From a virus: DNA of 64,000 nucleotides. This document shows, piece by piece, positions 48,836 through 63,817 of the stretch. The stretch is taken from positions 1 to 64,000 of the IMG/VR virus record IMGVR_UViG_3300025141_012985, one strand, 5' to 3'. The first letter of the stretch is position 1, and each line of letters opens with the position of its first letter. The notes under the pieces were generated by a model that did no database searches, had not been told where the DNA came from, and saw nothing but the letters and a program-made list of their open reading frames with translations. The position numbers were made by a program, and so were the translations under genes.

Positions 48836-49202
48836 TCCATGGAAAATATTTGTAGCTTGCATTTTTTGCAATCTTACAAAAAGGGTTGAATCTGAGCCCT
48901 ATATGTGGAAATTTTTTAAGCTATATCCGACACCAGAAAAAGCATCTAAGGCAAATCCTGATAAACTACAAAAGATGATTCAGCCGCTAGGATTGTCTAA
49001 GAGACGTTCTAGGGCACTTATCAAAATGTCCAATGATTACCTAATGAAAGACTGGAGAGATAAGCCAGAATCTCTCTACGGAATAGGGAAGTATGCCTCA
49101 GATGCGTATAGAATATTCTGCATGGGTGACTGGAGAAATGTTGATCCAAAAGACGGTGCTCTTGTCAGCTATCATGATTTTTTAAAATCTACCGTTCCTT
49201 AG
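48777..49202 (+). CDS. MBD4-like HhH-GPD mismatch DNA glycosylase (catalytic domain only)
   Basis: WIPPKSPYNLIQE...DPWK..VACIF.N.T...YP.......A....L...I.PLGL...R.......S..YL...W...P..L.GIGKY..D.YRIFC..W..V.P.D..L..YH matches the MBD4 glycosylase domain as I recall it. ATG 48777 follows GAGG. Confidence 0.85.
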   Translation: MTWIPPKSPYNLIQEHLWNDPWKIFVACIFCNLTKRVESEPYMWKFFKLYPTPEKASKANPDKLQKMIQPLGLSKRRSRALIKMSNDYLMKDWRDKPESLYGIGKYASDAYRIFCMGDWRNVDPKDGALVSYHDFLKSTVP

Positions 49203-50190: not shown

Positions 50191-50559
50191 ATGGATAGAC
50201 TTGATGAAATGTTTGATCGAAGACATGAATTTATGGACGTCTTAAACCAAAAGATCCCAGGAGCTTCTCCACTAGACCTAGATCTAAGTAAAAAAGAAGA
50301 TCAGCAAATTTGTCGAGATGTTGCTCTTCGAGGTGTCGAAGAAATGTTCGAAGCTCTTCAGCATCTTAAAAACTGGAAGCCCCATAGAGTTACAGATATT
50401 TCTGGATTTGATAGAGAGAAATTTCTTGAAGAAATGGTAGATGCTTTCAATTATTTTTTCTCTCTACTCATTATGACTGGATTTGACGCTGAAGATCTGT
50501 TTAGAGAATACTGTAGAAAAGATAGTGTAATTCATAAAAGACTAGAGGAGGGATATTAG
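50191..50559 (+). CDS. All-alpha NTP pyrophosphatase (dimeric dUTPase/dCTPase/MazG-like)
   Basis: EEMFEAL..LKNWKPH, EE.VD.F.YF, Y..K......R...GY. Confidence 0.8.
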   Translation: MDRLDEMFDRRHEFMDVLNQKIPGASPLDLDLSKKEDQQICRDVALRGVEEMFEALQHLKNWKPHRVTDISGFDREKFLEEMVDAFNYFFSLLIMTGFDAEDLFREYCRKDSVIHKRLEEGY

Positions 50560-50567
50560 CGTCTTTC

Positions 50568-50597
50568 ATGTACTTTAGTATATACCTGAATTATAAT
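50568..50597 (+). promoter_or_regulatory. Sigma70-like early/middle promoter
   Basis: ATGTAC-N18-TATAAT, then SD AGGAGG. Confidence 0.5.
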
Positions 50598-50613
50598 AGA
50601 TTTAGGAGGTATT

Positions 50614-51567
50614 ATGAGAGATTTAGGATATTTTTTTAATCGTCAGAATAAATTTTCTGATCTTTTCTTTAAAAGTGAAGACATGACTGAAGCAGAGAGA
50701 GAGGAGATGACAAAATCTCTTGCACTTGCTCTTCACGCTGAAGTTTCTGAACTGATAAGCGCAGTTAATTTTAAGGACCATAGGCAGCTTAAGAATGCTG
50801 CTGATCCTTCAAAGATTCTATATGAATCAGTTGATGTTTTTAGGTACTTATTGGCAATTTTAAATCTTTGGAATATTGACCCTGGATCAGTCATAGATGC
50901 TTTTGATGATAAAGACATGTTTCTTCACATGAGACATCAAATAGAATCTCAATTTTGGGATGGACAACCCGTCCTTGTGTTTGATATTGATGACGTAATT
51001 GCACACTTTAGATCTAACTTTATCGACTGGCTTGAGTCTGAGAAGGGAATAGTTGTCGACAGTAAATCTACAGAGTACTACACGACTATAGAAGTTAAAG
51101 AAGCTGGGCTGAATCCAGAAGAAGTGTTTGATGACTTTATAGCTGATCGAAATTTAAGACACCTTACATCCGACAGCGGGGTAGTTGATGTTATAAACTA
51201 TTTTTATGACAAGGGTTGTTGGATTCAGCTTCTTACTGCAAGACCAGGAGATGTTCTTCAGTGCAAGTATGATACGTATAGATGGCTTAGTACACTGGGT
51301 ATGAAATTTCATAGAGTTGATTTTAGTGCTGAGAAGTACAGGTGGCTAACAAAATCCGAATATTTTGATTCCGGCCAGATTGTTTGTGCAATTGATGATT
51401 CAGCTAAGCACTCTGCTGAATATGCAAAGCATGGAGTCATAACACTTTCTCCAGTTACTTCATACAATAGAGAGCTGGAAGATGTTGAAGGTGTCATGAT
51501 GTATTATGGCCCAAGTCAGCTAAAGACCCTTATTGACGCACTTCTAGTAAAGGGAAAATTTATATGA
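50614..51567 (+). CDS. Fusion: all-alpha dNTP pyrophosphatase plus HAD 5'(3')-deoxyribonucleotidase
   Basis: N-terminal AEVSEL...NFK.H...E.VD.FRY; C-terminal VFDIDDVI (HAD motif I), LTAR, T..WL, IDDS. Confidence 0.8.
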   Translation: MRDLGYFFNRQNKFSDLFFKSEDMTEAEREEMTKSLALALHAEVSELISAVNFKDHRQLKNAADPSKILYESVDVFRYLLAILNLWNIDPGSVIDAFDDKDMFLHMRHQIESQFWDGQPVLVFDIDDVIAHFRSNFIDWLESEKGIVVDSKSTEYYTTIEVKEAGLNPEEVFDDFIADRNLRHLTSDSGVVDVINYFYDKGCWIQLLTARPGDVLQCKYDTYRWLSTLGMKFHRVDFSAEKYRWLTKSEYFDSGQIVCAIDDSAKHSAEYAKHGVITLSPVTSYNRELEDVEGVMMYYGPSQLKTLIDALLVKGKFI

Positions 51568-51625: not shown

Positions 51626-52627
51626 ATGCCCCAGAATCGTGATTTAGACCCAATTGAGCTTCCAATGAAGCTAAAGTTTGGTCAAGATCCTTCAACTGAA
51701 TTTTTTAACAATCTTTCAGCTCTAACAGTTGAATTAGTTGACCACCCAACGAGAGAGCAAGCTCGAAATGTTGCATGGCAGTATGTCAAAGCAACATGGG
51801 CTGATCATGCTGATGATACATCACCCTATGTCGACGAGCTTCGACCCACTAGCCAGGATCTTTCAGAAAATCTTGAAGATGTTCTTTGTTTCAGGGCGCT
51901 TCCAACACCCATGGAGTGCTTTGGGTTTACATTTAAGCTTAGCGGGCTTTCTTTTCAGGAGGTCACTCATATTATTAGACATCGTGCAGGATCTTTTGCA
52001 GCACAGTGCACAGGTGATAGAGACCTAAGAGACGATCCTGCTGTCATACCAGAGGCAGTAGAAAATTCACCAGAATTTTTGAGAAGGTGGAAGCAGATTG
52101 TGCTAGACTCTAAGCAGCTCTATTCAGATATGACTGACTCAAAGGCGGTTTCAATGATGGATGCTAGAATGATTCTTCCAAAGTGTATGACATCTTTTTA
52201 CTTAATGAGACTTAATCTCAAAGATCTGCTTGGGTTCATTAAGCAAAGACAAGATATTCAGATTCAACCCGCTGCAGATAATCTTCTTGCTGCAATGATG
52301 GCAAAAGAACTCATTAAGGTTCTCCCCGAAGCTTCTGTGAGAATTGATTTTAACTCTCCAGACATGCACTACATAAAGACATTTCGAATAAAGCAGGGAG
52401 ATAGGTGGATTAGTCGAGGAACAAATTTGTACTGGCCTGAGCCCAAGAATGATAGATTTGAATATCATCCAAGTGACACAATCTACCAGTCTCGTAGAGA
52501 AAAGATTAATGGAACAAATAGACCTAGCGGTCCAACTAAATTTGAGAAGATATGGAATGATATTATGGATGAAATTTCTACAATGAAGATTTCATATAAA
52601 AATTACATGAATGGAGAATGTACATGA
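51626..52627 (+). CDS. thyX: Divergent ThyX-family flavin-dependent thymidylate synthase homolog
   Basis: F.F.L.G.S....H.IRHR..SF..Q, DARMILP, NL.DL..F..QR; the canonical post-RHR Ser..R is replaced by QCTGDR. Confidence 0.75.
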   Translation: MPQNRDLDPIELPMKLKFGQDPSTEFFNNLSALTVELVDHPTREQARNVAWQYVKATWADHADDTSPYVDELRPTSQDLSENLEDVLCFRALPTPMECFGFTFKLSGLSFQEVTHIIRHRAGSFAAQCTGDRDLRDDPAVIPEAVENSPEFLRRWKQIVLDSKQLYSDMTDSKAVSMMDARMILPKCMTSFYLMRLNLKDLLGFIKQRQDIQIQPAADNLLAAMMAKELIKVLPEASVRIDFNSPDMHYIKTFRIKQGDRWISRGTNLYWPEPKNDRFEYHPSDTIYQSRREKINGTNRPSGPTKFEKIWNDIMDEISTMKISYKNYMNGECT

Positions 52628-53064
52628 AAGCGTATATTGCAAGCTCTTGGTTCACACCGGCTGCATTTGAAGAAGTTGAAACAATTAAGTCACTTTTAAC
52701 AAAACACAGGTTTGATTATTTTTCACCTAAGGATTTTTTTATATGTCCCCCAACAGCTGATCTTAAGACACAAAGGGAAACATTTGAAGGAAATGTTGAG
52801 CATATTCTTGGAAATGATTTTGTAATTTGTAATACACGAGACAAGGATATGGGAAGTATATTTGAAGCTGGTGTTGCATTTCAATCTGATACTCCAATAG
52901 TTTATTTTTGTGCAGGACTTCCAGAGGGAGCAACATTTAATCTAATGTTAGCACAGTCAGGCGTGAAGGTTTGTACTTCTTTTGATGACCTGGATGACTA
53001 TCTCTCTAGATGTGCTGATTTAGAAATGCTTATTATTGAGCCGTATTATGGAAGTATCGAATAA
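52618..53064 (+). CDS. Nucleoside 2-deoxyribosyltransferase / nucleotide N-glycosidase (NDT/DNPH1/MilB fold)
   Basis: YIAS.WF, FSP, N...I...D, DMGSIFEAGVA, FNLML. Confidence 0.82.
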   Translation: MYMKAYIASSWFTPAAFEEVETIKSLLTKHRFDYFSPKDFFICPPTADLKTQRETFEGNVEHILGNDFVICNTRDKDMGSIFEAGVAFQSDTPIVYFCAGLPEGATFNLMLAQSGVKVCTSFDDLDDYLSRCADLEMLIIEPYYGSIE

Positions 53065-53305
53065 AGTATTTGCTCTCATACGATATGAGGGATCTTTTAA
53101 AAGTTTAGTTGGAATATTTTCTACATGCGAGTGTGCAAAAGAAGAAGTAGAAAAAGAAGATAGGCGTGATGTTCTATTTTCCATTCAAGAGAGGGTGATA
53201 AATTCTACCAATGAACCAGAATATGAAATAGAAGTCAAATATGCACTGGATGGTCAAAAATCTGAGATGATAGTAACAAGAAACTCTGTTGAGAATAATA
53301 GTTGA
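53036..53305 (+). CDS. Hypothetical protein
   Basis: Fills the gap between the NDT and dnaJ genes; 'LVGIFST.E.A' pattern. Confidence 0.45.
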
Positions 53306-54372
53306 AAAAAGATTATTATGACTTACTGGGTGTCAAGAGAGATTCATCTCAGAGCGAGATCAAGAAAGCGTATAGACAGCTAGCTTTAAAGCATCATCCC
53401 GATAAAAATCCAGATAATCCGAGTGCAGAATTAAAATTTAAAGAAGCTGCAGAGGCGTATTCTGTTCTTTCTGATAGTGAAAAAAGAAAGAATTATGACA
53501 TGTACGGTCACGACGGCGTTGAACACAGCTTTTCTGGATTTGACCCTAGAGATATCTTTGGTCATTTTGAGAATATGTTTGGAGGATTTGATCATTTCTC
53601 CGATAGACAGAGAAGATGGCGAAATGTTAGACAAAGAGGTTCTGATACTAGATTTAAGGTAAAGATAGATCTTGAAGAAGTTTTGTCTGGATGTAGTAGA
53701 AAAGTTCTCATTAAAAAAATAGTCAGCTGTCAGATCTGCAAGGGCCAAGGGTTCAAAGATAAATCAGACACTACTAGATGTGCACAGTGTAAGGGATCAG
53801 GAAGAATTCAGCAAGCTGTTAGAGGATTTATGACAATTGCATCTCCCTGTCACTCTTGTGCCGGACATGGATTTGTCGTTACCAAGACATGCAAGTGCTG
53901 TCACGGATCTGGAGCAATAAAAGAAAGAAAGGATATCAACGTCACAATACCACCAGGTGTTCATACAGGAAATATTCTTAAGCTTTCTGGAATGGGAAAT
54001 AAAGAGTCAACAGCAGAAATAGCAGGAGACGCACTCATAGAAATTGAAGTCAATGAGCATTCAAAGTTCCATCGAAAAGGTGTCGACATTCACAGCCACA
54101 CCTCTATCTCATATAGCGAAGCAGTCCTCGGAACAAGGATAAGTGTCGGGTGTCTCGATGGAAAGTCTGCAATAACGATCCCGCCGGGAATACAGCCGGG
54201 AGAGATAGTCGAGATAAGCGGGGAAGGCCTACCTGTAAAGTTAAACTCTTCAGACAGGGGAGTACATCATGTTCATATTTCAGTAAGTGTTCCTAAAGAA
54301 ATATCACAAGAAGAAAGAGAATTGATTGAAAATCTAGAGTCTCTAAGGCTTAGAAAAAGATTTATTGATTGA
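53302..54372 (+). CDS. dnaJ: DnaJ chaperone (J-domain, Zn finger, C-terminal domain)
   Basis: DYY.LLGV, KKAYR.LA.KHHPDKN, four CxxCxGxG repeats. Confidence 0.95.
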
Positions 54373-54425: not shown

Positions 54426-57400
54426 TTGATAGTGTTTAATAAGTTTTCTGTGCCCAAGAGATTCGTAGGTCTTCATGCACATGATGGTAGTTCTGTATAC
54501 GATGGTCTTGGATATCCCAATGAACATATCGATTTTGTTCTTGAAAACGGGATGGATGCTTTTGCATTAACAAATCACGGACATATGAATTCTTCTGCTC
54601 ATGCTCACAATTATGCTAAGAAGCTAAAGAATAAGGGCATGGGATATAGGCATATCTACGGATGTGAATGCTATTTCGTAGATGACCTAGATGAATGGAG
54701 AAGCGACTATAATGAGTATCGAGAAAAAGTTAGACAGGAAAAGGTGCTTCAAAAGAAATCAAAGAGTGAGATATCTGAGGGTGATGAGAGTGAAGGTCTA
54801 GTCATTGAGAATGAAGATGAATCAAAGGCAGATCGTGGAACGTACCCATCGTGGAAGAAGCGGTACCATCTTGTAGTTCTTGCTAAGAACTATAAAGGGC
54901 TGCAGAATCTCTTTAGATTGGTCAAGAGATCATACAAGGAAGGGTTCTATAGGTTTCCTCGTATTGATTACAAGATGCTCAAAGAGCACTCTGAGGGACT
55001 TATAGTCTCAACAGCTTGTGTTGGGGGTCGGCCGTCTGGCCATATATTCCAACACTTTGAAGGAAAGAGCTTTAATGAACTAACTCCTGATCTCGTAGAT
55101 GACCCAGTCGTTCTCAATCAAATTATGAGAAAGCTTGAGAATATGACAGATAGATTTGTTGATGCTGTAGGCGAGGAAAATTTCTTTCTTGAAATTCAAT
55201 TCAATGACCTTGTTGCTCAAAATCTTGCCAATAGGTGCATCATTAATCTTTCTGAAAAGACAGGGATCCCACTTCTTGCAACAGCTGATTCCCACTACTG
55301 TAACCCAGATATGTGGGAAGCAAGAGAGATGTATAGGCTGCTTGGAAGAATGGGGTCTCGTGGAGATGAAATGCCCAAGATTCCTAAAAAGGAAGATTTA
55401 AAGTGTGAGCTCTATCCTAAAAATGCACAGCAGATGTGGGATGAATTTGGAAAGAGTTACGATAAATATGACTTCTACAAGGGTAGCGAAGAAGCTGTTC
55501 GCGGAGCAATTGAGAAATCTTACGGAATTGCATGGGATATGTGTGAAGAAGTCTGGTTTGACGGATCAGCAAAACTTCCAAACTTTGGAACGCCTGAGAA
55601 ATCTGCGTTTGCCCAGCTAGTTGAACAGGTAAAAGAGGGAATGGTTAAAGATGGTCTTCATGAAAAACCTGAGTACGTCGAACGAGTAAGGGAGGAAATG
55701 TCTGTCATCAAGAAGCTAGGGTTTGAGAATTACTTTTTAACACTAACTAAGGTATTTGAAAAGTCACAACATAGAACTCTACTCGGGCCAGGTCGAGGAT
55801 CCGGAGGCGGAAGCCTGGTCAATTATGTCCTTGGGATTACACATATTGATCCAATTCAGTATGGCCTTCTATTTGAGAGGTTTCTAGGTATTCACAAAGC
55901 ATCATGGCCTGATATTGACTCTGATGTAGGTGATAGAGATGTTCTTATTGACGTTTCTCGTGAGCTTTTTGGTGAAGACTCTGTCATACCTGTTTCTAAT
56001 TTTAATACTTTGAAGTTAAAATCCCTTATCAAGGATGTCTCTAAGTTCTATGGAATTCCGTTTGATAAGATAAATGCTCTAACTGGACCACTTGAGAGAG
56101 AGGTTATGCCACGAGCCATGGGTGATCATGAAGAAAGGTCTACGTATGTCTTAACACACGAAGACTGTATGAAGTATAGTGATCCCTATAAAGAGTTCAT
56201 GGATGAATATCCAAAGATTGCAGAGCATATTAAGTCCTTATTTATGGAGCCAAGGTCGATCGGTCGACATGCAGGAGGTGTTCTAGTATGTCCAGATCTT
56301 GAGAGCAGCATGCCAGTCATTAAGGTCAGGGGCGAACTTCAAACACCCTGGTCTGAGGGAATGAACTGGAGGCATCTTGAAGAGAATGGATTTCTCAAGT
56401 TTGACTTTCTAGGACTTGCAACGCTTAAGATGGTAGAAGATTCCATCAGACTTATCCTAAGAAATCAGGGAGTAGAAAATCCTACATTTGATGATATCAA
56501 TAAATTCTTTGATGAAAATATAAACAGTAGATTTCATAAGATGGATGATCAAAAAGTCTGGGAATATGTTTACCATGATGGAAGGTTTGTCCAGGTTTTT
56601 CAATTCACAAATACAGGCGCTAGAAACTTCTGTGTTGCAGCAAAGCCCAGGTCAATTGAAGATCTTGCTACAATCACTGCAATCTATCGTCCAGGGCCCC
56701 TTGCTGCAAACGTTCACAGGAAGTATGTAAGAGCAGGCAAGGATATTGAAAATATCACATATGACCACCCTGTCCTTGAAGAACTTTTAAGTGAAAGTCG
56801 AGGATTTGTCGTCTTCCAGGAGCAGTTTATGCTTATTGCTCAAAATCTTTGCGGATTCGACAAGGGAGCATCAGATAAGATGAGAAAGACTCTTGTCAAG
56901 AAGTCTCTCGATATGAATGAAAAGAAGGCAAAAGAAAGGGCTGACCTAAGAAAGAAATTCATTACAGGCGCTGTTGATCTATCTGGAATGGAAGAGGATA
57001 AAGCGACTAAGCTTTATGAAACAATCGAGGCATTCTCTGCTTACGGATTCAATAAATCACATGCTGTTGCATACGCCGTTGATTCGTACTATTCCGCATG
57101 GCTTCACACATACTATGAGAAGGAGTGGCTTGCCACATGTCTTCAGACATGGAATGGATCTCCAAAGTTTGCAAAGATCATAGCTGAGATTAAGTCGCTA
57201 GGGTATAAGATTCTTCAACCAGACATTAACGCCTCTTCAGACGTATGGGTATATAGTGATGAAAGAGAGGGATTTGTTCCACCGCTTACTGCAATTAAGG
57301 GTGTTGGTGACTCTGCTGTTGCTGAGATTATGCAAAATAGACCCTATGATTCTCTTGATGATATTCTGTTTACAGAGGATGGAAAGTGGAAGTCTTCCAA

Positions 57401-58016
57401 GCTGAACAAGACAGCATTTGACTCTCTTTGCAAGGTCGAGGCTTTTGGCAGTGTGTCAGAAATGTCTAGCGGAGAGATTCAAAATCATAGACAGCTTCAT
57501 GATATTATTGTTGGAAACTATGATCAGCTGAAGAAAGGCAGATACGGGATGACAAAAACAGCGCATAAGAAACTGCTTAAGACACAAGGCTCTGTTGAAG
57601 AGTTTGTTCCTAAGTTGATCATTGATAACTACGGATCTTCAGACTGGTCTAGAACGCTTAAGATAGGGTTTAGTGTTGAGCTAATGTCAGGTGCAGATGA
57701 GTCTCTTGTCTTTCCTCCTAAAATAATGGAAAAGATTAAGAAGTCTGAACTTAAGCCGATTACTGCACTCTCTGGAAAGACAAAGGATGTAGTCTGGTTC
57801 TGCATTCAGGAAATTATTGAGAAGAAGACCAAAAATGGAAAGATATTCTACAGAATGAGAGTCTGTGATAATAATTCTGAAAGCTGCTGGCTCAGAGTGT
57901 GGACAAAGTTTAAAGAGGTTCCAGACCCATATACGATATGGATTGCAGAAGTTGCATCAACTGAGTCATGGGGGTGTAGTACATCTTCCTATAAGATGTG
58001 GAAGATTAATGTGTGA
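54426..58016 (+). CDS. dnaE: DNA polymerase III alpha subunit (family C)
   Basis: PHP domain (LHAH..SVYDG, TNHG, GCE, HLVVLA, STAC, ADSH), GPGRGSGGGSLV, FERF, PDIDSD, HAGG, KFDFLG, YRPGP, YGFNKSHA.AY. Confidence 0.97.
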   Translation: MIVFNKFSVPKRFVGLHAHDGSSVYDGLGYPNEHIDFVLENGMDAFALTNHGHMNSSAHAHNYAKKLKNKGMGYRHIYGCECYFVDDLDEWRSDYNEYREKVRQEKVLQKKSKSEISEGDESEGLVIENEDESKADRGTYPSWKKRYHLVVLAKNYKGLQNLFRLVKRSYKEGFYRFPRIDYKMLKEHSEGLIVSTACVGGRPSGHIFQHFEGKSFNELTPDLVDDPVVLNQIMRKLENMTDRFVDAVGEENFFLEIQFNDLVAQNLANRCIINLSEKTGIPLLATADSHYCNPDMWEAREMYRLLGRMGSRGDEMPKIPKKEDLKCELYPKNAQQMWDEFGKSYDKYDFYKGSEEAVRGAIEKSYGIAWDMCEEVWFDGSAKLPNFGTPEKSAFAQLVEQVKEGMVKDGLHEKPEYVERVREEMSVIKKLGFENYFLTLTKVFEKSQHRTLLGPGRGSGGGSLVNYVLGITHIDPIQYGLLFERFLGIHKASWPDIDSDVGDRDVLIDVSRELFGEDSVIPVSNFNTLKLKSLIKDVSKFYGIPFDKINALTGPLEREVMPRAMGDHEERSTYVLTHEDCMKYSDPYKEFMDEYPKIAEHIKSLFMEPRSIGRHAGGVLVCPDLESSMPVIKVRGELQTPWSEGMNWRHLEENGFLKFDFLGLATLKMVEDSIRLILRNQGVENPTFDDINKFFDENINSRFHKMDDQKVWEYVYHDGRFVQVFQFTNTGARNFCVAAKPRSIEDLATITAIYRPGPLAANVHRKYVRAGKDIENITYDHPVLEELLSESRGFVVFQEQFMLIAQNLCGFDKGASDKMRKTLVKKSLDMNEKKAKERADLRKKFITGAVDLSGMEEDKATKLYETIEAFSAYGFNKSHAVAYAVDSYYSAWLHTYYEKEWLATCLQTWNGSPKFAKIIAEIKSLGYKILQPDINASSDVWVYSDEREGFVPPLTAIKGVGDSAVAEIMQNRPYDSLDDILFTEDGKWKSSKLNKTAFDSLCKVEAFGSVSEMSSGEIQNHRQLHDIIVGNYDQLKKGRYGMTKTAHKKLLKTQGSVEEFVPKLIIDNYGSSDWSRTLKIGFSVELMSGADESLVFPPKIMEKIKKSELKPITALSGKTKDVVWFCIQEIIEKKTKNGKIFYRMRVCDNNSESCWLRVWTKFKEVPDPYTIWIAEVASTESWGCSTSSYKMWKINV

Positions 58017-58025
58017 GGTATTAAA

Positions 58026-58934
58026 ATGCTAACGTTTCCAATTAACATGATTTCAATAGAGGGGCCAGACCTTTCTGGAAAGACAACCCTAATCAATGAC
58101 ATTCACAAGAAGACGAATTATCGGTGGCATCTAATGGATAGGTCAAAGCTTTCTAGAATGGTGTTTGCCAAGATGTATGATAGAGACGTTGAACAAACTA
58201 CAAGAGAGTTCTACGAAGAAGTTAGTAATCTAAACAATAGATGTGTCTTTTTAATGCCCACATTCGAAGTTCTGGAGGAGAGATACAAAACTCGTGGTGA
58301 TGAAATTCATACAATTGATACGCTAAGAGAGTCATACAATTTATTTTTTAAAGAATTTACTAGACTCCCATCTTTATCAAACGTCTATGGAATTATGAAT
58401 GGTTCGTCTGGAAGATTAAGTAATATGGTTATTGACTATCACAATTGCATTGAAAAGTATCTAACACTCAAAGAGGTCTATGGTCAAGTACAAAATTTTG
58501 TCAAGCACTTTCCGAACAACGAATGCAATCAGCTAACATTCACGCTTCACGACAGCGGTGAGTTTAAAGAGTCAAACATAGCCTCTATGAGTGAAAAATC
58601 AGAAAAAGAATACTATCATAGAATTTATGACTCTTTAATGAATAAAATTGATGATGAACAGTCTGGAAAGAATCCATACTCAAGAAAAGAAGGTTTAGAT
58701 TCAAGAAGGTATGTCTTTACAGAAGACACATGCATCTCAATGATTCATATTTTGAATAGGGATTCTGTTCTAGATGTGCGATTTGTTTGTAGATCTACTG
58801 ATATTAATAATAAGTTTGAACATGATTTAAATTTCTTATACTTTATAGCTTCAGAGTGCTGGAATTTGCTTGGTGGTGGATGTAATTTTTGCAAAATGCA
58901 TTTCACCTTAAACTCTGCACACATTCTTGAGTAA
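58026..58934 (+). CDS. Fusion: dNMP (thymidylate-type) kinase plus C-terminal ThyA/dCMP-hydroxymethylase-fold domain
   Basis: IEGPDLSGKTT P-loop, DRS.LS, RGDE; C-terminal DSRR...C...RSTD-x7-D...SAH. Confidence 0.75.
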   Translation: MLTFPINMISIEGPDLSGKTTLINDIHKKTNYRWHLMDRSKLSRMVFAKMYDRDVEQTTREFYEEVSNLNNRCVFLMPTFEVLEERYKTRGDEIHTIDTLRESYNLFFKEFTRLPSLSNVYGIMNGSSGRLSNMVIDYHNCIEKYLTLKEVYGQVQNFVKHFPNNECNQLTFTLHDSGEFKESNIASMSEKSEKEYYHRIYDSLMNKIDDEQSGKNPYSRKEGLDSRRYVFTEDTCISMIHILNRDSVLDVRFVCRSTDINNKFEHDLNFLYFIASECWNLLGGGCNFCKMHFTLNSAHILE

Positions 58935-58953: not shown

Positions 58954-59958
58954 ATGGAAAAGAGAGCTTTAGTTACGGGTGGGTGTGGATTCATCGGTTC
59001 AAATCTGACAAGAGAGCTTATTAAGCAGGGCTGGATGGTCGACATTGTAGATGACATGTCGAATGGTCACCTGGAGCTTCTAGAGGGATTAAATTTTAGA
59101 GTCATTCCCAGTTCAGAGTTTCTTATTGAGTTTAATAAGCAGTCTGGAAGGGGAAGGGAAACAGTTGTCGTTATTCAAGATGACTTTGCATCTCCGGGAA
59201 TATCATATCAGATATCTAAAAAGATGTATGATGTTGTGTTCCACCAAGCTGCGATCCCTAGAGTTTTATTTTCTGTTGAAAATCCTGCAATGACAACAGA
59301 TACAAATATTGGATCAACAGTTAAATTATTTGAAGCCTGCATCGGAAATGTTAAAAGAATTGTCTGGGCTTCATCCTCTTCAGTGTACGGAGGTGCTGAT
59401 TTGATGCCTACTTCTGAGGATCATCCGAAGGATCCTAAATCTCCATACGCCTGGCAGAAATCTTCAATAGAAGATCTGTCTAGAGTTTTTTGCAATCTCT
59501 ACAATATTGATATTGTATGCTTAAGATATTTTAACGTTTTTGGTCCAGGACAGTACGGAGATTCTCCCTATTCCACTGCAGTTTCTGCATGGTGCAATGC
59601 CATCTTAGAGGGAACACCCTTGAGAAGTGACGGTGACGGAACACAGTCAAGAGATCTTTGCTACATTGACAATGTCGTTCAGGCAAATATTTTAGCTGCA
59701 AATCGTGACGAAAGCTTTGAGGGACAATATTATAATATTGCGTGCGGAGATCGAACGACAAATAATCAAATTCTTAATTTCTTTAAAGATAGATTTTCTA
59801 ATGTTGAAGTAGTCAATGCACCGTGGAGACCTGGAGATGTCATGCACACACAGGCTGATATTACAAGAGCTAGGGAGGATTTTGGATACGAACCTGTTGT
59901 GAGAATTTGGGAAGGACTAGAAAAAACGGTCGAGTGGTGGGATCTAAAGGATGAGTAA
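58954..59958 (+). CDS. NAD-dependent nucleotide-sugar epimerase/dehydratase (GalE/WbpP-like SDR)
   Basis: VTGGCGFIGS, ASSSSVYG, YAWQK (YxxxK), LRYFNVFGP, GDGTQSRD. Confidence 0.92.
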   Translation: MEKRALVTGGCGFIGSNLTRELIKQGWMVDIVDDMSNGHLELLEGLNFRVIPSSEFLIEFNKQSGRGRETVVVIQDDFASPGISYQISKKMYDVVFHQAAIPRVLFSVENPAMTTDTNIGSTVKLFEACIGNVKRIVWASSSSVYGGADLMPTSEDHPKDPKSPYAWQKSSIEDLSRVFCNLYNIDIVCLRYFNVFGPGQYGDSPYSTAVSAWCNAILEGTPLRSDGDGTQSRDLCYIDNVVQANILAANRDESFEGQYYNIACGDRTTNNQILNFFKDRFSNVEVVNAPWRPGDVMHTQADITRAREDFGYEPVVRIWEGLEKTVEWWDLKDE

Positions 59959-60382
59959 GGGAATTTGGAGAGGTAATTCTTCCAGACATATAAAGCCCTG
60001 GGGGGAAGAGGTTACCTGGGTAGGACCAAGTGCCTATGGAAAGATTTTAACAGTTAGCTCAGGAAAGAGCCTAAGCTTTAAGATGAATAAGGTTAAAACT
60101 GAGACACTATTTGTCGTCCAGGGAAGAATAATAGTTCAGTGTGCTGATCAAGGGTTCTTTGAAGATCCACCAAACTATCCAATGCGTGAAATGGTGTGTA
60201 CTCAAGGGGAGTGTCTAAGCATTCAGTCTGAATGTCCATATAGAATAACTGCAGAAATTGATTCAATAATATTTGAAATAGGGGACATGCCGCATGATGC
60301 ATCCTTTAGAATTATAGATGACTATGGCAGAGAAGACAAGTCTCTTTCACATCTTGCGGAGATTATAATTGAGAATTCCTGA
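59951..60382 (+). CDS. Cupin-fold protein (mannose-6-phosphate isomerase-like), His ligands apparently lost
   Basis: KPWG.E, GKIL....GKSLS....K.ET..V..G, R.TA, DDYGR. Confidence 0.7.
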   Translation: MSKGIWRGNSSRHIKPWGEEVTWVGPSAYGKILTVSSGKSLSFKMNKVKTETLFVVQGRIIVQCADQGFFEDPPNYPMREMVCTQGECLSIQSECPYRITAEIDSIIFEIGDMPHDASFRIIDDYGREDKSLSHLAEIIIENS

Positions 60383-60926
60383 GTTTATCATTTTTACTGG
60401 CCCTATGTTCGGATCTAAGACGACTAGGTTGCTCGCTGTCCTAGACCGCTTCAGGTACCAAAATAGAAATATTACATGCTTTAAGCCTGCCATGGATGAT
60501 AGATATTCTTCTGGAGAAATCTGTACACACTCAGGTGGAAAGATTGACGCTGTTTGTGTAAAAACAGGTGAAGATATATTAAAATACTTACAGGATAAAG
60601 AAAATATTCATGTTATTGCAGTTGACGAGGCTTTTATGATAGATGGTTCTGCATCAGCACTTCTTTCTCTTTTTAGAGAGGGAAAGACAATTGTCGTATC
60701 TTCTCTTCAACTTTCCGCTAGTGGAAATGTATTTGAAGAAATTAGGGATATGATGCCATGGGCAACAAAAATTGAGGTTTGCCCAGCTGTGTGTCCAATT
60801 TCTGGACAAGATGCATACTATACACATAGAAAGCTTTCAGGTCTTGATGAAATTACTGTCGGAGGATCTGAGCTTTATGAGCCAAGGTCATGGTTTCATC
60901 ACAATTTTATGAATCAGTCAAAATAG
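60369..60926 (+). CDS. tdk: Thymidine kinase family protein (divergent)
   Basis: FTGPMFGSKTT, FKP..DDRY, I.THSG, IAVDEA, VGG.E.YEP. Confidence 0.85.
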   Translation: MRIPEFIIFTGPMFGSKTTRLLAVLDRFRYQNRNITCFKPAMDDRYSSGEICTHSGGKIDAVCVKTGEDILKYLQDKENIHVIAVDEAFMIDGSASALLSLFREGKTIVVSSLQLSASGNVFEEIRDMMPWATKIEVCPAVCPISGQDAYYTHRKLSGLDEITVGGSELYEPRSWFHHNFMNQSK

Positions 60927-60961: not shown

Positions 60962-61951
60962 ATGATTGAACCAACCAGCGTGAATTGTGTAATCTATCAT
61001 GCAAATTGTACAGACGGATTTGGTGCTGCTTATTCTGCCTGGAAGCTGCTAGGCAATCGTGCTGAGTACCATGCATGTAAGCACGGAACTCCTCCCCCAG
61101 ATATAAAAGATAAAAATGTCGTAATTTTAGATTTTTCCTTCGATAACACAACTACTAAAAAAATGATTGAAGAGGCTAATGCGCTTCTAGTCATAGATCA
61201 TCATAAGTCAGCCATGGTAGAGCTTCATGATATATCAAATACAGTTTTTGATATGACGAAATCTGGTGCAATGCTTTCATGGGAATTTTTTCATCTAGGA
61301 AAAGAGCCGCCAAAATTCATCAAGTATATTCAAGATCGCGATCTTTGGAAATGGGAGCTTGACTATTCTAAAGAGTTTAGCGCAGCATTTGATATGGTGC
61401 CATTTGAATTTGAGGAATTTGAAAAGTTTGAAGATGACTCTGTATTTGATGATGCTGTAAAGCGCGGATCCTATATACTTGCATACAGCAAGACAGTTAT
61501 TAAAAAGGTGTGTGAAAAGGCAGTTGAGAGAAGATATAAAGGAATGAAAGTCATGGTGGTTAATTCTTCTCACTGGATGTCTGAGATTGGTGCTAGGTTG
61601 GCACCAGACTGTGACTTTGCAGTTATATGGTACTATGATCATGAAGACAGAATTAACAAGATAAGTTTGCGTGCTTTTCATGACGCAGTTGATGTTTCTG
61701 AAATTGCAAAGGGCTTCGGCGGTGGCGGGCATAAGAAGGCAGGTGGCTTTCAAATAAGCGGCGAGCTCTGTGTTGATGATATTTTTGATCCCGAGGTAGA
61801 GGATGAACATGAAGACCCAGTTGATACTTCTGCTGCAAGGGAAGAGCTTAAAAAGATTCAAAGTGCGCTTGATGAGGAGTGTGATAAAGAGGCAGTTGCA
61901 AAGGTTGAAGAGATCTTAGACAAGATTGAATCTTCCAAGGATGAGGAATAA
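60962..61951 (+). CDS. DHH/DHHA1 phosphoesterase
   Basis: YHANCTDG, ILDFS, IDHH, DRDLW, SLR, GGGGHKKAGGF. Confidence 0.9.
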   Translation: MIEPTSVNCVIYHANCTDGFGAAYSAWKLLGNRAEYHACKHGTPPPDIKDKNVVILDFSFDNTTTKKMIEEANALLVIDHHKSAMVELHDISNTVFDMTKSGAMLSWEFFHLGKEPPKFIKYIQDRDLWKWELDYSKEFSAAFDMVPFEFEEFEKFEDDSVFDDAVKRGSYILAYSKTVIKKVCEKAVERRYKGMKVMVVNSSHWMSEIGARLAPDCDFAVIWYYDHEDRINKISLRAFHDAVDVSEIAKGFGGGGHKKAGGFQISGELCVDDIFDPEVEDEHEDPVDTSAAREELKKIQSALDEECDKEAVAKVEEILDKIESSKDEE

Positions 61952-62682
61952 TGTCGTATTTGGGATTTACTAGATCAATCTGTAGATACTATCTCTCACA
62001 GATAGATTTTCCAAAAGTTTTAGAAATAGGTGTAGACAAGGGCCAGACAGCTATCCCATTAATTCAAAACTTATGCACTACAAAAAGACAATTTATGTAT
62101 GCTGGAATAGATGTTCTCTTATCAAGAGACCTCATCGAGCAGATTGGTCAATTTGAAAATATGTCAGTTAGCTGGCATGATGATCTGACAGACAGAGTTG
62201 TAATGATGTTTGAAGAAAATAGCCTAGACTGGCTGGGAAATAATCAAGACAGCTCACTAAAGTTTGATTTAATCCTTATTGACGGAGATCACAATTATTA
62301 TACTGTGTTCAATGAATTAAATCTCATTCAGGCAATAATAAAGCCGACTACACTTATAGTTTGTGATGATTTCCAGGGAAGATACAGTGAAAAAGATATG
62401 TTTTACTCAGAGAGAGAAGAATATAAAGATGTGCCTGATATGACACCTCGTAAAATTACTAAAAAAAGCGGAATTAGAAGTGCTGTTATTGACTTTAGAG
62501 ATCAGTCTCCCCTAAGCTGGAGAGTGGACACATTCGGACCATCTGATCCGTGTTTTCTCTATCAAGAAGATTTTTTAGAAGCGTGGGCTGATCCGCCAGA
62601 GAATACACTGTTACGAGATATGAAAATATCTTTCTCCTTTAAGGGTGAGAAACAGTCTGAATCTTCTAGGGATGAAGAATAA
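61951..62682 (+). CDS. Class I SAM-dependent methyltransferase (Methyltransf_24-like), copy 1
   Basis: VLEIGVDKG, GID, FDLILIDGDHNY, IVCDD. Confidence 0.85.
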   Translation: MSYLGFTRSICRYYLSQIDFPKVLEIGVDKGQTAIPLIQNLCTTKRQFMYAGIDVLLSRDLIEQIGQFENMSVSWHDDLTDRVVMMFEENSLDWLGNNQDSSLKFDLILIDGDHNYYTVFNELNLIQAIIKPTTLIVCDDFQGRYSEKDMFYSEREEYKDVPDMTPRKITKKSGIRSAVIDFRDQSPLSWRVDTFGPSDPCFLYQEDFLEAWADPPENTLLRDMKISFSFKGEKQSESSRDEE

Positions 62683-63401
62683 TGTCATATTTAGGATTTA
62701 CCAGATGTATCAGCAGATATTATTTGTCACAGATAGACTTTCCAAAGATATTGGAGATTGGTATTGACAAGGGACAGACTGCAATTCCGCTAATTCAAAA
62801 TCTCTGTATTTCAAAGTCTACATTTATGTATGCAGGCATAGACATTCTTTTAAGAAACGAGCTCCTAGAGCAAATATCTCAATTTGAAGGAATTACAGCT
62901 AGCTGGCTTGATGAGCTTGATGATAGGGCTGTCATGATGTTTGAAGAAAATAGCCTAGACTGGCTGGAAAATAATCAAGATGCTGATATAGAATTTGATC
63001 TTGTTCTTGTCGATGGAGATCATAATTATCATACAGTGTTCAATGAGCTTAAGCTCATTGAGTCTTTGATAAAACCTGCTACACTTATAGTTTGTGATGA
63101 CTATCAAGGGAGATACAGTGAAAAAGATATGTTCTATTCAGAGAGAGAAGAGTATAAGGACGTAGAGGGAGCTACTCACAGAGTTGATTCAAAAAAGCAG
63201 GGTGTTAGAAACGCAGTTATTGACTATACCAATCAATCGAAATTTGAGTGGAGGGTCGATAGATTTGGACCTTCTGAGCCTTGCTTTTTGTATCAGCCAG
63301 AATTTCTAAAAGTTAATGCAAAGCCTGCAAAGTGTGCTAGACTTAGGGATATGGAAGCTGATTTTATTTTCAACCCTGAAGAGAAATTTTTAGTCCGATG
63401 A
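62682..63401 (+). CDS. Class I SAM-dependent methyltransferase (Methyltransf_24-like), copy 2
   Basis: ILEIGIDKG, FDLVLVDGDHNY, IVCDD; tandem paralog of the preceding gene. Confidence 0.85.
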   Translation: MSYLGFTRCISRYYLSQIDFPKILEIGIDKGQTAIPLIQNLCISKSTFMYAGIDILLRNELLEQISQFEGITASWLDELDDRAVMMFEENSLDWLENNQDADIEFDLVLVDGDHNYHTVFNELKLIESLIKPATLIVCDDYQGRYSEKDMFYSEREEYKDVEGATHRVDSKKQGVRNAVIDYTNQSKFEWRVDRFGPSEPCFLYQPEFLKVNAKPAKCARLRDMEADFIFNPEEKFLVR

Positions 63402-63817
63402 GACCCACGTGGCATCAGATATGGATGGACTTTTCTTATTTAATAGCTGGAAGGTCCGTTGACCCTCGACATCAAGTAGGGGCAGTTGTTGTAACAGACG
63501 ATAATACTCAAGTATTAGCAGTTGGATATAACGGAAACTACAAGGGAGGACCTAATGAGGTTGAATCTCTATCTCCCGGAGAGTCTGGAATGATTCATGC
63601 TGAGATAAATGCTCTCTTAAAGATGGACTATAACAATCCCAAGAGAAAGATAATGTATGTTACATTAAGTCCGTGCAGAATGTGTGCAAAGGCAATTGTT
63701 AATTCAGGCATCTCTGCTGTCGTGTATCTAGAAGAGTACAGAGATACGTCTTCTTTAAAAATCTTAAGGGATGAGGGAATAGAAGTCATTAAGTTTATCT
63801 CCAAGGATGATAATTAG
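63398..63817 (+). CDS. dCMP deaminase (ComEB/T4 Cd-like)
   Basis: VGAV, GYNG, HAEINAL, SPCRMC. Confidence 0.92.
   Translation: MRPTWHQIWMDFSYLIAGRSVDPRHQVGAVVVTDDNTQVLAVGYNGNYKGGPNEVESLSPGESGMIHAEINALLKMDYNNPKRKIMYVTLSPCRMCAKAIVNSGISAVVYLEEYRDTSSLKILRDEGIEVIKFISKDDN

Follow-up and report, generated by a model that had tools for sequence, protein, structure and literature searches.

The window, by which we mean the whole stretch of 64,000 nucleotides analysed here (positions 1 to 64,000 of the IMG/VR virus record IMGVR_UViG_3300025141_012985), contains at 58026..58934 on the plus strand an open reading frame of 302 aa that joins two domains, a nucleotide kinase and a minimal domain of the thymidylate synthase (ThyA) fold. 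The frame starts with ATG and its stop codon lies at 58932-58934. A Shine-Dalgarno-like GAGGT (58015..58019, +) is located 6 nt 5' of the ATG, where it overlaps the TGA stop codon (58014-58016) of the gene directly upstream, which encodes a DnaE-type DNA polymerase III alpha (54426..58016, +). Residues 1-144 (58026..58457, +) form a P-loop nucleotide kinase domain according to VIA-align, profile and Pfam comparisons, and residues 145-302 (58458..58931, +) form the ThyA-fold domain of 158 aa, which was recognised from its model and by VIA-align, Foldseek and hhalign. The AlphaFold2 model of the full-length fusion, built from a 90-sequence alignment, reached a pLDDT of 96.5 and a pTM of 0.92.

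The genes around the fusion, which serve nucleotide metabolism, were counted within 10 kb of it in 79 related viral loci, and all of these neighbours lie on the same strand. The DnaE gene is found upstream in 79/79 loci, and its matches in phage records, which are annotated as DnaE-like, all have less than 30% identity. A Zn-dependent dCMP deaminase (63398..63817, +; PF00383, E 2.1e-22) recurs in 65/79 loci, a thymidine kinase of the TK1 type (60369..60926, +; PF00265, E 5.6e-30) in 63/79, and a divergent ThyX paralogue of 333 aa (51626..52627, +; PF02511, E 1.1e-17 and 1.3e-19) in 37/79. Two all-alpha NTP pyrophosphohydrolase genes (50191..51567, +; Pfam dUTPase_2) encode one protein of 122 aa and one of 317 aa with a phosphatase-like C-terminal part. 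Both proteins match phrog_173, as does the T4 gp56 dCTPase/dUTPase (E 5.8e-39); this shared PHROG is the sole link to gp56, a BLASTP comparison of the 317-aa protein with T4 gp56 having returned nothing (E 0.25). The other neighbours include a DHH phosphoesterase (54/79), a nucleoside deoxyribosyltransferase-like protein (43/79) and gp56-type NTP pyrophosphohydrolases (25/79). The scanned parts of the record revealed neither a DNA glycosyltransferase nor any other gene for post-replicative modification, and a canonical ThyA (PF00303) is absent both from this record and from four of the four large relatives. All four of the latter carry a canonical second ThyX besides the divergent copy. An earlier note on this DNA had regarded the dTMP supply as covered by the ThyX and thymidine kinase homologues. 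Both genes are indeed present in the cluster, but the nearby ThyX is the divergent paralogue, and a dTMP supply through this particular copy is less certain because the relatives carry the canonical ThyX elsewhere.

Family matches to the fusion protein comprise 163 clusters when grouped at 90% identity and 257 when grouped at 50%, the full-length ones being about 300 aa long. Residue counts out of 80 given below refer to the window protein and its counterparts from the 79 viral loci, among which identity falls as low as 28%. One frameshifted locus was left out of one alignment; it is included among the 80 sequences counted, and it accounts for the only deviation in the kinase columns. The kinase is joined to the ThyA-fold domain obligately in this family. 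Indeed, no candidate for a stand-alone C-terminal domain of 30-165 aa was found among the family matches. Short matches of 163-219 aa were also considered as stand-alone C-terminal domains and rejected: they gave no useful Pfam match, several of them start inside the kinase domain when aligned, and judged by these alignments they are probably fragments. The four largest related records that carry the fusion are phage genomes of 200-284 kb, and the source record represents about 25% of a genome. A tblastn search with the fusion protein against 50,697 phage records gave zero matches; since, in addition, all DnaE matches are below 30% identity, the lineage appears to have no cultured relative. 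Among cellular genomes, a single relative spans the full length; its 26-kb contig is assigned to an archaeal MAG but is possibly a viral contig that was binned with it. Seven further matches are partial and cover the kinase part only. The sequencing runs listed number 24, all of them contigs, and none of those listed is RNA. In the searchable literature we found no account of a fusion of a thymidylate synthase to a kinase or of this fusion family; a survey of jumbo phages (PMC7824862) mentions thymidylate synthase and ThyX only in general terms in the retrieved passages. On our best reading, the gene belongs to an uncultured marine jumbo-phage lineage and the fusion protein acts in pyrimidine nucleotide metabolism.

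The N-terminal domain most closely resembles YorR of the Bacillus prophage SPbeta (PDB 2axp, 3kb2), with 3kb2 as the best structural match in VIA-align (Z 13.0, 138 residues aligned, rmsd 2.8) and YorR matched by the family profile at E 4.9e-7. YorR shares the compact architecture of the P-loop kinase and an EGPD..K.T motif, but it is a stand-alone protein of 173 aa to which, as far as we know, no function has been assigned. In VIA-align, dTMP kinases and deoxyadenosine kinase are tied at Z 10-12, and dCK chains reach similar scores. At E≤0.01, Pfam Thymidylate_kin was detected in 24/90 family members (best E 2.9e-8) and dNK in 14/90, and the PHROG for thymidylate kinase matches the fusion protein at E 1e-7. 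The window protein itself stays under the curated cut-offs (12.3 bits for Thymidylate_kin and 17.0 bits for dNK, with a cut-off of 27 each; 18.7 bits for TIGR00041, with a cut-off of 83.25), and direct scans of it with Pfam, PHROGs, NCBIfam and single-sequence PDB searches yielded weak P-loop matches, with ThyA absent. The hallmarks of thymidylate and deoxynucleoside kinases are nonetheless all present, namely the fold, the P-loop Lys, the acceptor Asp-Arg and the LID arginines (79-80 of 80). The P-loop reads E12-G-P-D15-L-S-G18-K19-T-T21 (58059..58088, +; E12, G13, D15, G18 and K19 each in 79/80). It is followed by D38-R39-S40, the predicted acceptor-site Asp-Arg (58137..58145, +; D38 in 79/80, R39 in 80/80), and by a LID-like R86-x3-R90-G91-D92 (58281..58301, +; R90 in 79/80 and R86, G91 and D92 in 80/80). 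We liken D38-R39-S40 to the 'DRY' motif of TMPK and the 'ERS' motif of dNK, and we take the EGxDxxGK P-loop and the D-R (not E-R) acceptor motif to be thymidylate-kinase-like. The affinities of the proposed dNMP kinase are with thymidylate kinases, deoxynucleoside kinases and YorR, no T4 gp1 chain is among the 50 structural matches listed for the domain, and 'dNMP kinase' is therefore a functional guess. Because the cluster already has a dCMP deaminase, a ThyX and a thymidine kinase, the domain may simply be the dTMP kinase of the phage.

The C-terminal domain, when modelled alone, reached a pLDDT of 97.6. Compared with 48,161 PDB chains by VIA-align, its top seven matches all belong to the ThyA superfamily (Z 8.7-11.1, with 131-145 of the 158 residues aligned), and the next match has a Z of 5.5. 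The top match is 9iqc (Z 11.1, 145/158 residues aligned, rmsd 3.1); the ThyA chain 3ix6 scores 10.2, MilA 10.1 and the T4 dCMP hydroxymethylase (dCH, gp42) chain 6l18 8.7. Foldseek against the PDB gave a best E of 3.2e-7 with query-normalised TM values of 0.58-0.64 and at least 372 matches at E≤0.001, all of which, among the matches listed, are ThyA, dCH, MilA or AfhB. The top BFVD matches to the domain are mostly viral homologues of thymidylate synthase and dCH. ThyA-superfamily chains are thus the only strong fold matches, and the superposition on the ThyA fold on which the earlier note had made its proposal depend is borne out. At the sequence level, hhalign aligned the profile of the C-terminal domain family to the T4 dCH family with a probability of 94.0% (E 1.4e-7, 138 columns), to T4 gp42 alone with 93.6%, and to E. 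coli ThyA with 56% (E 1.1e-4). The same profile searched against PDB sequences matched T4 dCH at E 0.002 and AfhB at E 0.049. PF00303 gave no match to the window protein at a threshold as loose as E≤10 and was detected in 0/90 family members at E≤0.01. Judged by the model and these profile alignments, the domain is a pared-down ThyA fold. As the fusion escapes the models of Pfam and NCBIfam, annotation pipelines label it a hypothetical protein or a kinase.

Inspection of the codons confirmed that the ThyA-like motifs described in the earlier note (SRR, Cys at 58731, RSxD at 58791, Asp at 58824 and SAH) are located where it had placed them. In the window protein, E166 (58521..58523, +; 79/80) is aligned by hhalign to the invariant E35 of T4 dCH. 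The stretch E193-K-E-Y196-Y197 (58602..58616, +) corresponds to E60-L-E-W63-Y64 of T4 dCH (E193 in 79, Y196 in 76 and Y197 in 77 of 80), E193 being aligned to E60 by hhalign with lower alignment confidence in that half; we take E60 to be the equivalent of E58 of E. coli ThyA, the catalytic Glu of helix B. S226-R227-R228 (58701..58709, +; R227 and R228 each in 79/80) is matched in several alignments to S125-R126-R127 of ThyA, in which the two arginines of one subunit bind phosphate in the site of the other. The predicted nucleophile Cys236 (58731..58733, +; 79/80) corresponds in four alignments to C146 of ThyA and C148 of T4 dCH, and it is the sole conserved Cys among the eight in the window protein, the other seven varying freely. 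R256-S257-T258-D259 (58791..58802, +; R256 and S257 each in 79/80) corresponds to R166-S167-C168-D169 of ThyA. Asp267 (58824..58826, +), present in 80/80, occupies the base-specifying position, that of N177 in ThyA, and in every alignment it shares a column with Asp179 of T4 dCH, as the earlier note had predicted. The distances between Cys236 and R256 (20 residues) and between Asp259 and Asp267 (seven residues) equal those among C146, R166, D169 and N177 of ThyA, whose E. coli translation was checked for these residues and for H207-L-Y209, and C148, R168, D171 and D179 of T4 dCH align without gaps. The protein ends with Ser297-Ala298-His299-Ile-Leu-Glu-stop (58914-58934), in which S297-A298-H299 (58914..58922, +; S297 and H299 each in 79/80) corresponds to S214-L-H216 of T4 dCH and to H207 of ThyA, and a Leu occupies the position of ThyA Y209. 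In residues 145-165, before the start of the hhalign alignment, no conserved basic residue was seen near the position of ThyA R21 (K28 in T4 dCH).

Two further positions bear on the class of enzyme. E233-D234 (58722..58727, +), three and two residues before the Cys, lies in the neighbourhood of ThyA L143. The residue tallies show that position 233 is never hydrophobic in the 80 sequences (D36 G16 S12 N6 Q6 E3 H1), and position 234 is mostly acidic (D46 E15 N8 S5 P4 K1). According to PMC13326640, the replacement of N177 by Asp together with a non-hydrophobic residue at the L143 position characterises dCMP enzymes with non-methyl products. Both features of this dCMP-branch signature are present in 80/80 sequences. 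At the D169 position the window protein carries Asp259 and not the Asn that marks 5-hydroxy-dCMP synthases. In the family this position is D in 44, N in 29 and E in 7 of 80 sequences and switches between D, N and E among close relatives; the published D169N rule for hydroxylases consequently fails to sort the family, and the product cannot be predicted from it. In a single locus, L078, E193, R227, C236, R256, S257 and H299 are all lost, with the kinase motifs and Asp267 kept, and the joint loss of these six residues suggests that they form one functional unit.

The earlier description of a stripped-down domain, with a short RR-to-Cys loop, HxY replaced by HIL and no tail, also proved correct. 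The SRR-to-Cys loop has 8 residues, compared to 19 in E. coli ThyA and 24 in T4 dCH, and three residues follow the conserved His, compared to 57 in E. coli ThyA. In total about 108 of the 264 ThyA residues are absent, including both folate-clamping parts, which are the tryptophan loop region (W80/W83) and the C-terminal closing segment (the ~55 residues past His207). The Tyr94 motif (NSNYGW in dCH) and Tyr209 are missing as well. In the hhalign alignment, the dCH segments ~66-79, ~90-100 and everything past residue 219 have no counterpart. A domain so reduced might not turn over.

A dimer of the C-terminal domain was also modelled and obtained a score of 0.52, against 0.01 for the best of three controls. 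The dimer runs share at least 57% of their contacts, with a partner pLDDT of at least 77. This score passes a mark that, in the calibration of the tool, was reached by 20 of 30 proteins solved as same-chain pairs and by one of 23 solved as single chains; these counts apply only roughly here, since the dimer was modelled from our own alignment. The pass may reflect a likeness to ThyA dimers that are already solved. The modelled interface brings R227 and R228 of one copy into contact with R256 and S257 of the other, a pattern like that of the E. coli ThyA homodimer, and E166 is predicted to pair with R245 across the interface in a salt bridge (22 to 101' in domain numbering).

Among proteins of known function, T4 gp42 (PDB 1b49, 1b5d, 6a9a, 6l18) has the same fold and is the best sequence relative of the C-terminal domain. 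The spacings from its Cys to Arg-Ser (20 residues), Asp171 and Asp179 are identical, its Arg-Arg pair, Glu60, Glu35 and His216 have invariant counterparts in the fusion family, and both proteins have polar or acidic residues before the Cys. However, gp42 is an unfused protein of 246 aa, whereas the domain has 158 aa, is fused to a kinase, and is without 16 of the RR-to-Cys residues, Tyr218 and the last ~27 residues. E. coli ThyA shares the core beta-sheet, S125-R126-R127, C146, R166-S167, D169 and H207, but it has Asn177 in place of the Asp, as well as W80/W83, Y94, Y209, residues ~210-264 and the hydrophobic L143, which the domain lacks. MilA, the CMP hydroxymethylase of mildiomycin biosynthesis (5jnh, 5b6d), has 145 residues aligned at its Z of 10.1 and the highest Foldseek TM (0.64). 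Unlike the fused phage domain, it is a stand-alone bacterial protein of 318 aa with a ribonucleotide substrate. According to PMC13326640, MilA has Asp at both the N177 and the L143 positions. The group of HY126 AfhB, RB69 gp48 and DLP3 gp80 (9iqu, 9iqc) has Asp at N177 and is, like the C-terminal domain, truncated soon past the SAH strand. The members of this group have the diagnostic D169N and a kinase encoded by a separate gene, whereas the window protein has Asp, about 70 residues fewer and a fused kinase. The T4 gp1 dNMP kinase is a functional analogue, with the same proposed role of phosphorylating a modified dCMP. A precedent for a thymidylate synthase fused to a partner of the same pathway is DHFR-TS, in which the partner is DHFR instead of a kinase; DHFR-TS chains are present among the Foldseek matches.

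On balance, we favour the reading that the fusion works as a dimer, in which a Cys-dependent enzyme alters dCMP at C5 and is coupled to a dNMP kinase, which would make it a fused analogue of T4 gp42 and gp1. Everything functional about it is deduced from homology, namely what the dimer does, which substrate is used, that catalysis is covalent, which of the two steps comes first and that the product enters DNA. The C-terminal domain would dimerise through its beta-sheet in the manner of ThyA, so that Arg227 and Arg228 would complete the phosphate site of the partner (Arg256, Ser257). Asp267 would read the N3/N4 edge of cytosine, in which case the substrate would be dCMP (possibly CMP). Cys236 would then add to C6, with Glu193 as the proton relay, and the activated C5 would take up an electrophile to give a 5-substituted dCMP, of the hydroxymethyl or hydroxy type and not methyl. 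The thymidylate-kinase-like domain, rigidly packed on the C-terminal domain, would convert this product to the diphosphate, after which a cellular NDP kinase and the DnaE polymerase of the phage could bring the modified nucleotide into DNA. Because the W80/W83 loop and the C-terminal clamp are deleted, we consider a donor that binds loosely or is not a folate no less likely than classical CH2-THF.

Two more specific versions of such an activity were weighed against the data. According to the first, the domain would act as T4 gp42 does, as a dCMP hydroxymethylase that depends on folate, and the fused kinase would phosphorylate the resulting 5-hydroxymethyl-dCMP. The sequence relationship to T4 dCH argues for this, as do the T4-like presence of gp56-family pyrophosphohydrolases and a dCMP deaminase in the cluster, and the Asp at the D169 position with Glu/Asp before the Cys, which follows the rule for hydroxymethylases in PMC13326640. 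However, the W82 loop region of dCH, its NSNYGW motif (dCH Y96) and everything past its residue 219 are absent, no folate-metabolism gene was seen in the scanned parts, and position 259 is Asn in 29/80 relatives; we consider this version doubtful. Somewhat less probable, and in our view unlikely, is the second version, in which the domain would be of the AfhB / RB69 gp48 type and would make 5-hydroxy-dCMP with the help of flavin and O2. AfhB (9iqu, 9iqc) ranks first among the structural matches in both Foldseek and VIA-align, its chain stops soon past the SAH strand (with the His near residue 220 of 234 aa), and those same 29/80 relatives have the D169N signature; moreover, 5-hydroxy-dCMP synthases require a cognate dNMP kinase for incorporation, as stated in PMC13326640. 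Against it, the window protein and 44/80 sequences have Asp and 7/80 have Glu at this position, about 70 AfhB residues are without a counterpart (145 residues align across a stretch of 216), and the difference in Z between AfhB and ThyA or MilA, about 1, amounts to a tie.

The earlier note had also considered that the domain might merely sense dCMP. In its wider form, this explanation holds that the ThyA-like part is not an enzyme but a cytosine-nucleotide-binding module that steers or regulates the kinase, or a scaffold for replication and dNTP synthesis. The heavy reduction of the domain, with the cofactor-clamping parts gone, is consistent with this, as are the tight linkage to DnaE (79/79 loci) and the L078 protein, which persists with its kinase and Asp267 but without the Cys set. 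A nucleophilic Cys and a catalytic Glu would be needless for binding, yet both are kept in 79/80 sequences down to 28% identity, which argues against a mere sensing module and renders this explanation improbable. It is also rather improbable that the order is reversed, with an N-terminal deoxycytidine kinase that feeds dCMP to the ThyA-like domain and a separate kinase for the product: deoxyadenosine kinase and dCK chains score about like thymidylate kinases (Z 10-12), dNK is detected by Pfam, one relative is named 'deoxyadenosine/deoxycytidine kinase' and a salvage thymidine kinase is nearby, but the P-loop and acceptor motifs are of the thymidylate kinase type, Thymidylate_kin is commoner than dNK in the family, and the PHROG match is to thymidylate kinase. 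The possibility that the C-terminal domain is a Cys-dependent dCMP deaminase was dropped, as the cluster already contains the Zn-dependent enzyme in 65/79 loci.

Homologues of thymidylate synthase start most of the known pyrimidine hypermodifications of phages, from 5-hydroxymethyl-C and 5-hydroxymethyl-U to, most recently, 5-hydroxy-C. If the dCMP-modifying activity that we favour is real, the fusion would point to modified cytosine in a large group of ocean phages that has so far gone unrecognised, would define a minimal catalytic core of the ThyA fold, with 158 aa and no folate clamp, and would constitute a natural single-chain module for modifying and then phosphorylating a nucleotide, usable for the production of modified dNTPs. 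If the domain is inactive, it would instead be a clear example of an enzyme fold recruited for nucleotide binding. A bolder and more tentative idea is that widespread, uncultured marine jumbo phages carry a C5 modification on their cytosine or in its place, made by the smallest ThyA-fold enzyme yet seen, which would lack the folate clamp, use another electrophile and hand its product over directly to the fused kinase; the electrophile could come from a flavin hydroperoxide, from a free aldehyde or from the neighbouring divergent ThyX, which would pass on a donor. Were this to hold, the thymidylate synthase superfamily would gain a new catalytic solution, a new DNA base might come with it, and this group of phages may produce modified cytosine in its DNA by a new route.

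The fusion gene reads directly as an ORF of 302 aa with an ATG start (58026-58934, + strand). A GAGGT is found 6 nt before this ATG, overlapping the stop codon of the gene directly upstream, which encodes a DnaE-type polymerase of 1196 aa on the same strand. The earlier note had described the product as a kinase fused to a minimal ThyA-fold domain with a dCMP-specifying Asp, and all motifs that it named were found at the codons it gave, namely S226-R227-R228 (58701-58709), Cys236 (58731), R256-S257-T-D259 (58791-58802, with R256 exactly 20 residues after Cys236), Asp267 (58824), all on the + strand, and SAH in the C-terminal end, which translates as S297-A-H299-I-L-E-stop. The thyA gene in the E. 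coli K-12 record translates to a protein with R126-R127, C146, R166-S167-C-D169, N177 and H207-L-Y209, and the ThyA spacings quoted in the note are therefore right. The observation of a kinase (residues 1-144) fused to a minimal ThyA-like domain (residues 145-302, the C-domain) is confirmed.

With the single fusion sequence, family scans and a PDB search detected a weak P-loop and nothing else, and the Pfam ThyA model matched none of 90 fusion family members at E≤0.01. When the whole-protein family profile was compared with the PDB, T4 gp42, the dCMP hydroxymethylase (dCH), was matched with an E-value of 0.027. The C-domain-only profile matched T4 dCH (E 0.002) and then the flavin-dependent dCMP hydroxylase AfhB (E 0.049), and in both profile alignments Cys, Arg-Ser, Asp and Asp aligned with T4 dCH without gaps. 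Using hhalign, the C-domain alignment matched a 30-sequence dCH family alignment at 94.0% (E 1.4e-7, 138 columns), T4 gp42 alone at 93.6% (E 2.1e-7, 81 columns) and E. coli ThyA alone at 56% (E 1.1e-4, 48 columns). AlphaFold2 modelled the whole fusion protein with a pLDDT of 96.5 and a pTM of 0.92 (90-row alignment), and residues 145-302 alone with a pLDDT of 97.6 (103 rows). In Foldseek searches of the PDB, all matches listed for the C-domain were ThyA, T4 dCH, MilA or AfhB (E down to 3.2e-7, query-normalised TM 0.58-0.64). A second, independent search of 48,161 representative chains placed ThyA superfamily members in the best seven positions (Z 8.7-11.1, rmsd 3.0-3.8), each aligning over 131-145 of the domain's 158 residues; Z drops to 5.5 for the chain ranked eighth. 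The best matches among viral predicted structures were mostly viral thymidylate synthase (TS) or dCH homologues, and a language-model atlas pointed to PF00303-bearing clusters (score 0.91), which we treat as a lead only. The earlier note would have been refuted by a C-domain that did not superimpose on ThyA; since it does superimpose in the fold searches, its ThyA fold is real, and the structural interpretation in the note is supported. A few very small stand-alone viral proteins in BFVD, for example of 151, 169 and 174 aa, also match the C-domain weakly, the first being an uncharacterised protein of Synechococcus phage S-CBWM1; unfused minimal ThyA folds may exist in other phages.

To describe conservation, the ORF was taken from all 79 related viral loci and aligned with the window protein (n = 80). 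In the C-domain, R245 and D267 are present in all 80 sequences, and E166, E193, R227, R228, C236, R256, S257, S297 and H299 in 79; of the eight Cys residues in the fusion protein, Cys236 alone is conserved. The kinase half retains E12, G13, D15, G18, K19, D38, R39, R53, R86, R90, G91 and D92, each in 79 or 80 sequences. Mean pairwise identity is 40% for the kinase half and 36% for the ThyA-like half, so that constraint on the two halves is comparable. The sole outlier in the P-loop columns is locus L063, where the fusion copy (10001-10907, a 907-nt match) has a 5' frameshift and runs into stop codons if the starting frame is read on. In locus L078 (10001-10789, on a 239,550-bp viral contig) E193, R227, C236, R256, S257 and H299 are jointly lost while the kinase motifs and Asp267 are kept, giving a natural 'dead' C-domain. 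Such a joint loss would be expected if these residues formed one catalytic unit that is lost as a whole.

In the ThyA family, each active site relies on an Arg pair contributed by the other subunit. When the C-domain was folded as two copies, the score was 0.52, compared to 0.01 for the best of three controls. In the calibration of the tool, 20 of 30 proteins solved as same-chain pairs and 1 of 23 solved as single chains attained this score, counts that apply only roughly here because our own alignment was supplied. Contact agreement between runs was at least 57% and partner pLDDT at least 77. The predicted interface is the beta-sheet; R227 and R228 of one copy contact R256/S257 of the other, and E166 contacts R245', a contact that would explain the invariance of both residues. 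The prediction supports a ThyA-like dimer of the C-domain, short of demonstrating it, and the pass may reflect likeness to known dimers because ThyA dimers have already been solved.

The kinase half (residues ~2-150) matches YorR, a protein of prophage SPbeta, with a Z of 13.0 over 138 residues at an rmsd of 2.8; dTMP kinases of archaea and bacteria (Z 11-12) and Mycoplasma deoxyadenosine kinase (Z 12.0) are effectively tied with it. Pfam Thymidylate_kin was detected in 24 of 90 family members and dNK in 14 of 90 (E≤0.01). We infer a dNMP kinase because the P-loop (EGxDxxGK) and the acceptor motif (D-R) are what we take to be more thymidylate-kinase-like; a deoxynucleoside kinase is the alternative assignment.

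We consider a bifunctional enzyme the most likely mechanism, with somewhat better than even confidence: a C-domain dimer would modify C5 of dCMP in a Cys236-dependent manner, and the kinase in the same chain would phosphorylate the modified product. Profile alignment with the dCH family equates T4 dCH E35, E60, W63-Y64, R123-R124, C148, R168-S169, D171, D179 and H216 with window E166, E193, Y196-Y197, R227-R228, C236, R256-S257, D259, D267 and H299, respectively; T4 E60 corresponds to E. coli ThyA E58. Compared to the E. coli ThyA sequence, about 108 of 264 residues are gone in four places: ~9 ahead of the catalytic-Glu position, ~34 between this Glu and the Arg pair (including the W80/W83 loop region and Y94, whose dCH counterpart is the NSNYGW motif), 11 between the Arg pair and Cys, and 54 after the His. 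In the window protein, the position of Tyr209 is occupied by Leu. The 'stripped-down' domain of the earlier note, with its short RR-to-Cys loop and missing C-terminal tail, is an accurate description. No conserved basic residue was found in the loop corresponding to that of ThyA R21, this position lying outside all alignments. In ThyA, the folate cofactor is clamped by the tryptophan loop together with the C-terminal segment, and both are missing here. A folate-derived hydroxymethyl is one candidate for the electrophile, to which we give a low probability.

According to PMC13326640, N177D marks TS homologues that use dCMP, acidic residues in place of L143 accompany non-methyl products, and D169N marks the flavin- and O2-dependent 5-hydroxy-dCMP synthases RB69 gp48, DLP3 gp80 and HY126 AfhB, which require a cognate dNMP kinase for the base to enter DNA. 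Judged by these rules, the window protein agrees at N177D and L143 but not at D169N. None of the 80 sequences has a hydrophobic residue at the L143 position (3 before Cys), and the D169 position is mixed (44 D, 29 N, 7 E), flipping among close relatives with the same gene context. AfhB is the nearest structure to the C-domain and, like the window protein, terminates shortly after the SAH strand. A flavin/O2-derived hydroxyl is a second candidate electrophile, with a probability slightly below that of the folate-derived one. The electrophile may also come from another source. A ThyA-like domain without any catalysis would accommodate the extensive shortening, but with Cys236 and E193 each kept in 79 of 80 sequences we hold it to be improbable.

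Modified dCTP in T4 is made by a route in which a pyrophosphohydrolase turns dCTP back to dCMP, an Asp-bearing TS homologue modifies dCMP, and a dNMP kinase rescues the modified product, beside dCMP deaminase, thymidylate synthase and thymidine kinase. The neighbourhood of the fusion gene has the same logic. Within 10 kb on the same strand, DnaE lies directly upstream in 79 of 79 loci, accompanied by dCMP deaminase (65), thymidine kinase (63), a nucleotide-sugar epimerase (61), a DHH/DHHA1 phosphoesterase (54), a nucleoside deoxyribosyltransferase-like protein (43), divergent ThyX (37), all-alpha NTP pyrophosphohydrolases (25) and a cupin (24), all of them minimum counts, since numerous loci run off the end of their contig. 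Canonical ThyA is absent from the window's own record, an 84-kb IMG/VR fragment estimated to be ~25% complete, and from all four large relatives.

Several genes of this region deserve mention in their own right. Two adjacent all-alpha NTP pyrophosphohydrolases (50191-50559 and 50614-51567) belong to PHROG 173, as does the T4 gp56 dCTPase/dUTPase; the additional C-terminal part of the second (317 aa) matches phosphatase/polynucleotide-kinase-like PHROGs, making a pyrophosphohydrolase-phosphatase fusion possible. A long divergent ThyX paralogue (51626-52627, 333 aa, PF02511 E ~1e-17 to 1e-19) scores far under the NCBIfam thyX cut-off. All four near-complete relatives (200-284 kb) have two ThyX genes, a canonical one away from the fusion (E 1e-47 to 1e-52, open frames of 227-267 aa) and a divergent one close to it (332-351 aa), and the latter may be other than an ordinary thymidylate synthase. 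Next after the divergent ThyX, an order seen in 43 of 79 loci, lies a nucleoside 2-deoxyribosyltransferase-like gene (52618-53064, 148 aa, PF05014 E 1e-10). Since dNMP N-glycosidases are among the relatives of this fold, its product might clear an unwanted nucleotide. A nucleotide-sugar epimerase/dehydratase and a small cupin (58954-60382) separate the fusion gene from thymidine kinase within this block of nucleotide-metabolism genes, and the two could act in the host-surface functions of the phage or supply the sugar donor of a DNA glycosylation; the best NCBIfam match of the epimerase is TviC-like (E 1.2e-52), far under the cut-off. Tandem paralogous Methyltransf_24 genes (61951-63401, 243 and 239 aa), between the DHH phosphoesterase and dCMP deaminase, recur in just 3 of the 79 loci. 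At 48756-49857, a + strand gene for an HhH-GPD glycosylase-like protein of 148 aa runs into the end of a gene for a calcineurin-like phosphoesterase; of the larger ORFs listed beyond 42 kb, the phosphoesterase gene is the sole one on the minus strand. Chaperone and stress genes comprise a full DnaJ with J, zinc-finger and C-terminal domains (window 53302-54372), and, in the record beyond the window (L080), an Fe/Mn superoxide-dismutase-like gene (record 64130-64864, L080:130-861) and a GroEL-type chaperonin (record 78672-80288, L080:14672-16285).

The fusion family (proteins of ~300 aa) comprises 163 clusters at the 90% identity level (E≤0.001, among 493 candidates) and 257 representatives at the 50% level, 62 of these with E≤1e-30. 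Relatives of the window's record reach 200-284 kb at 70-100% completeness. A tblastn search of 50,697 phage records gave no match, and no cultured phage has the protein. Among 185,579 species genomes the sole full-length relative (32% identity) is L082:5001-5870, on a 26-kb contig assigned to a marine MAG of archaea (label Methanobacteriota); either the contig is viral and was binned with this MAG, or it hints at the host. The literature searched contains no account of this family or of any TS-kinase fusion, though supplements might list related metaviromic homologues. The fusion protein is a good and directly testable lead, short of a demonstrated function. Its C-domain is the smallest ThyA-fold domain for which a match could be found; it has no folate clamp, is always joined to a kinase, and is widespread among marine jumbo phages that have not been cultured.
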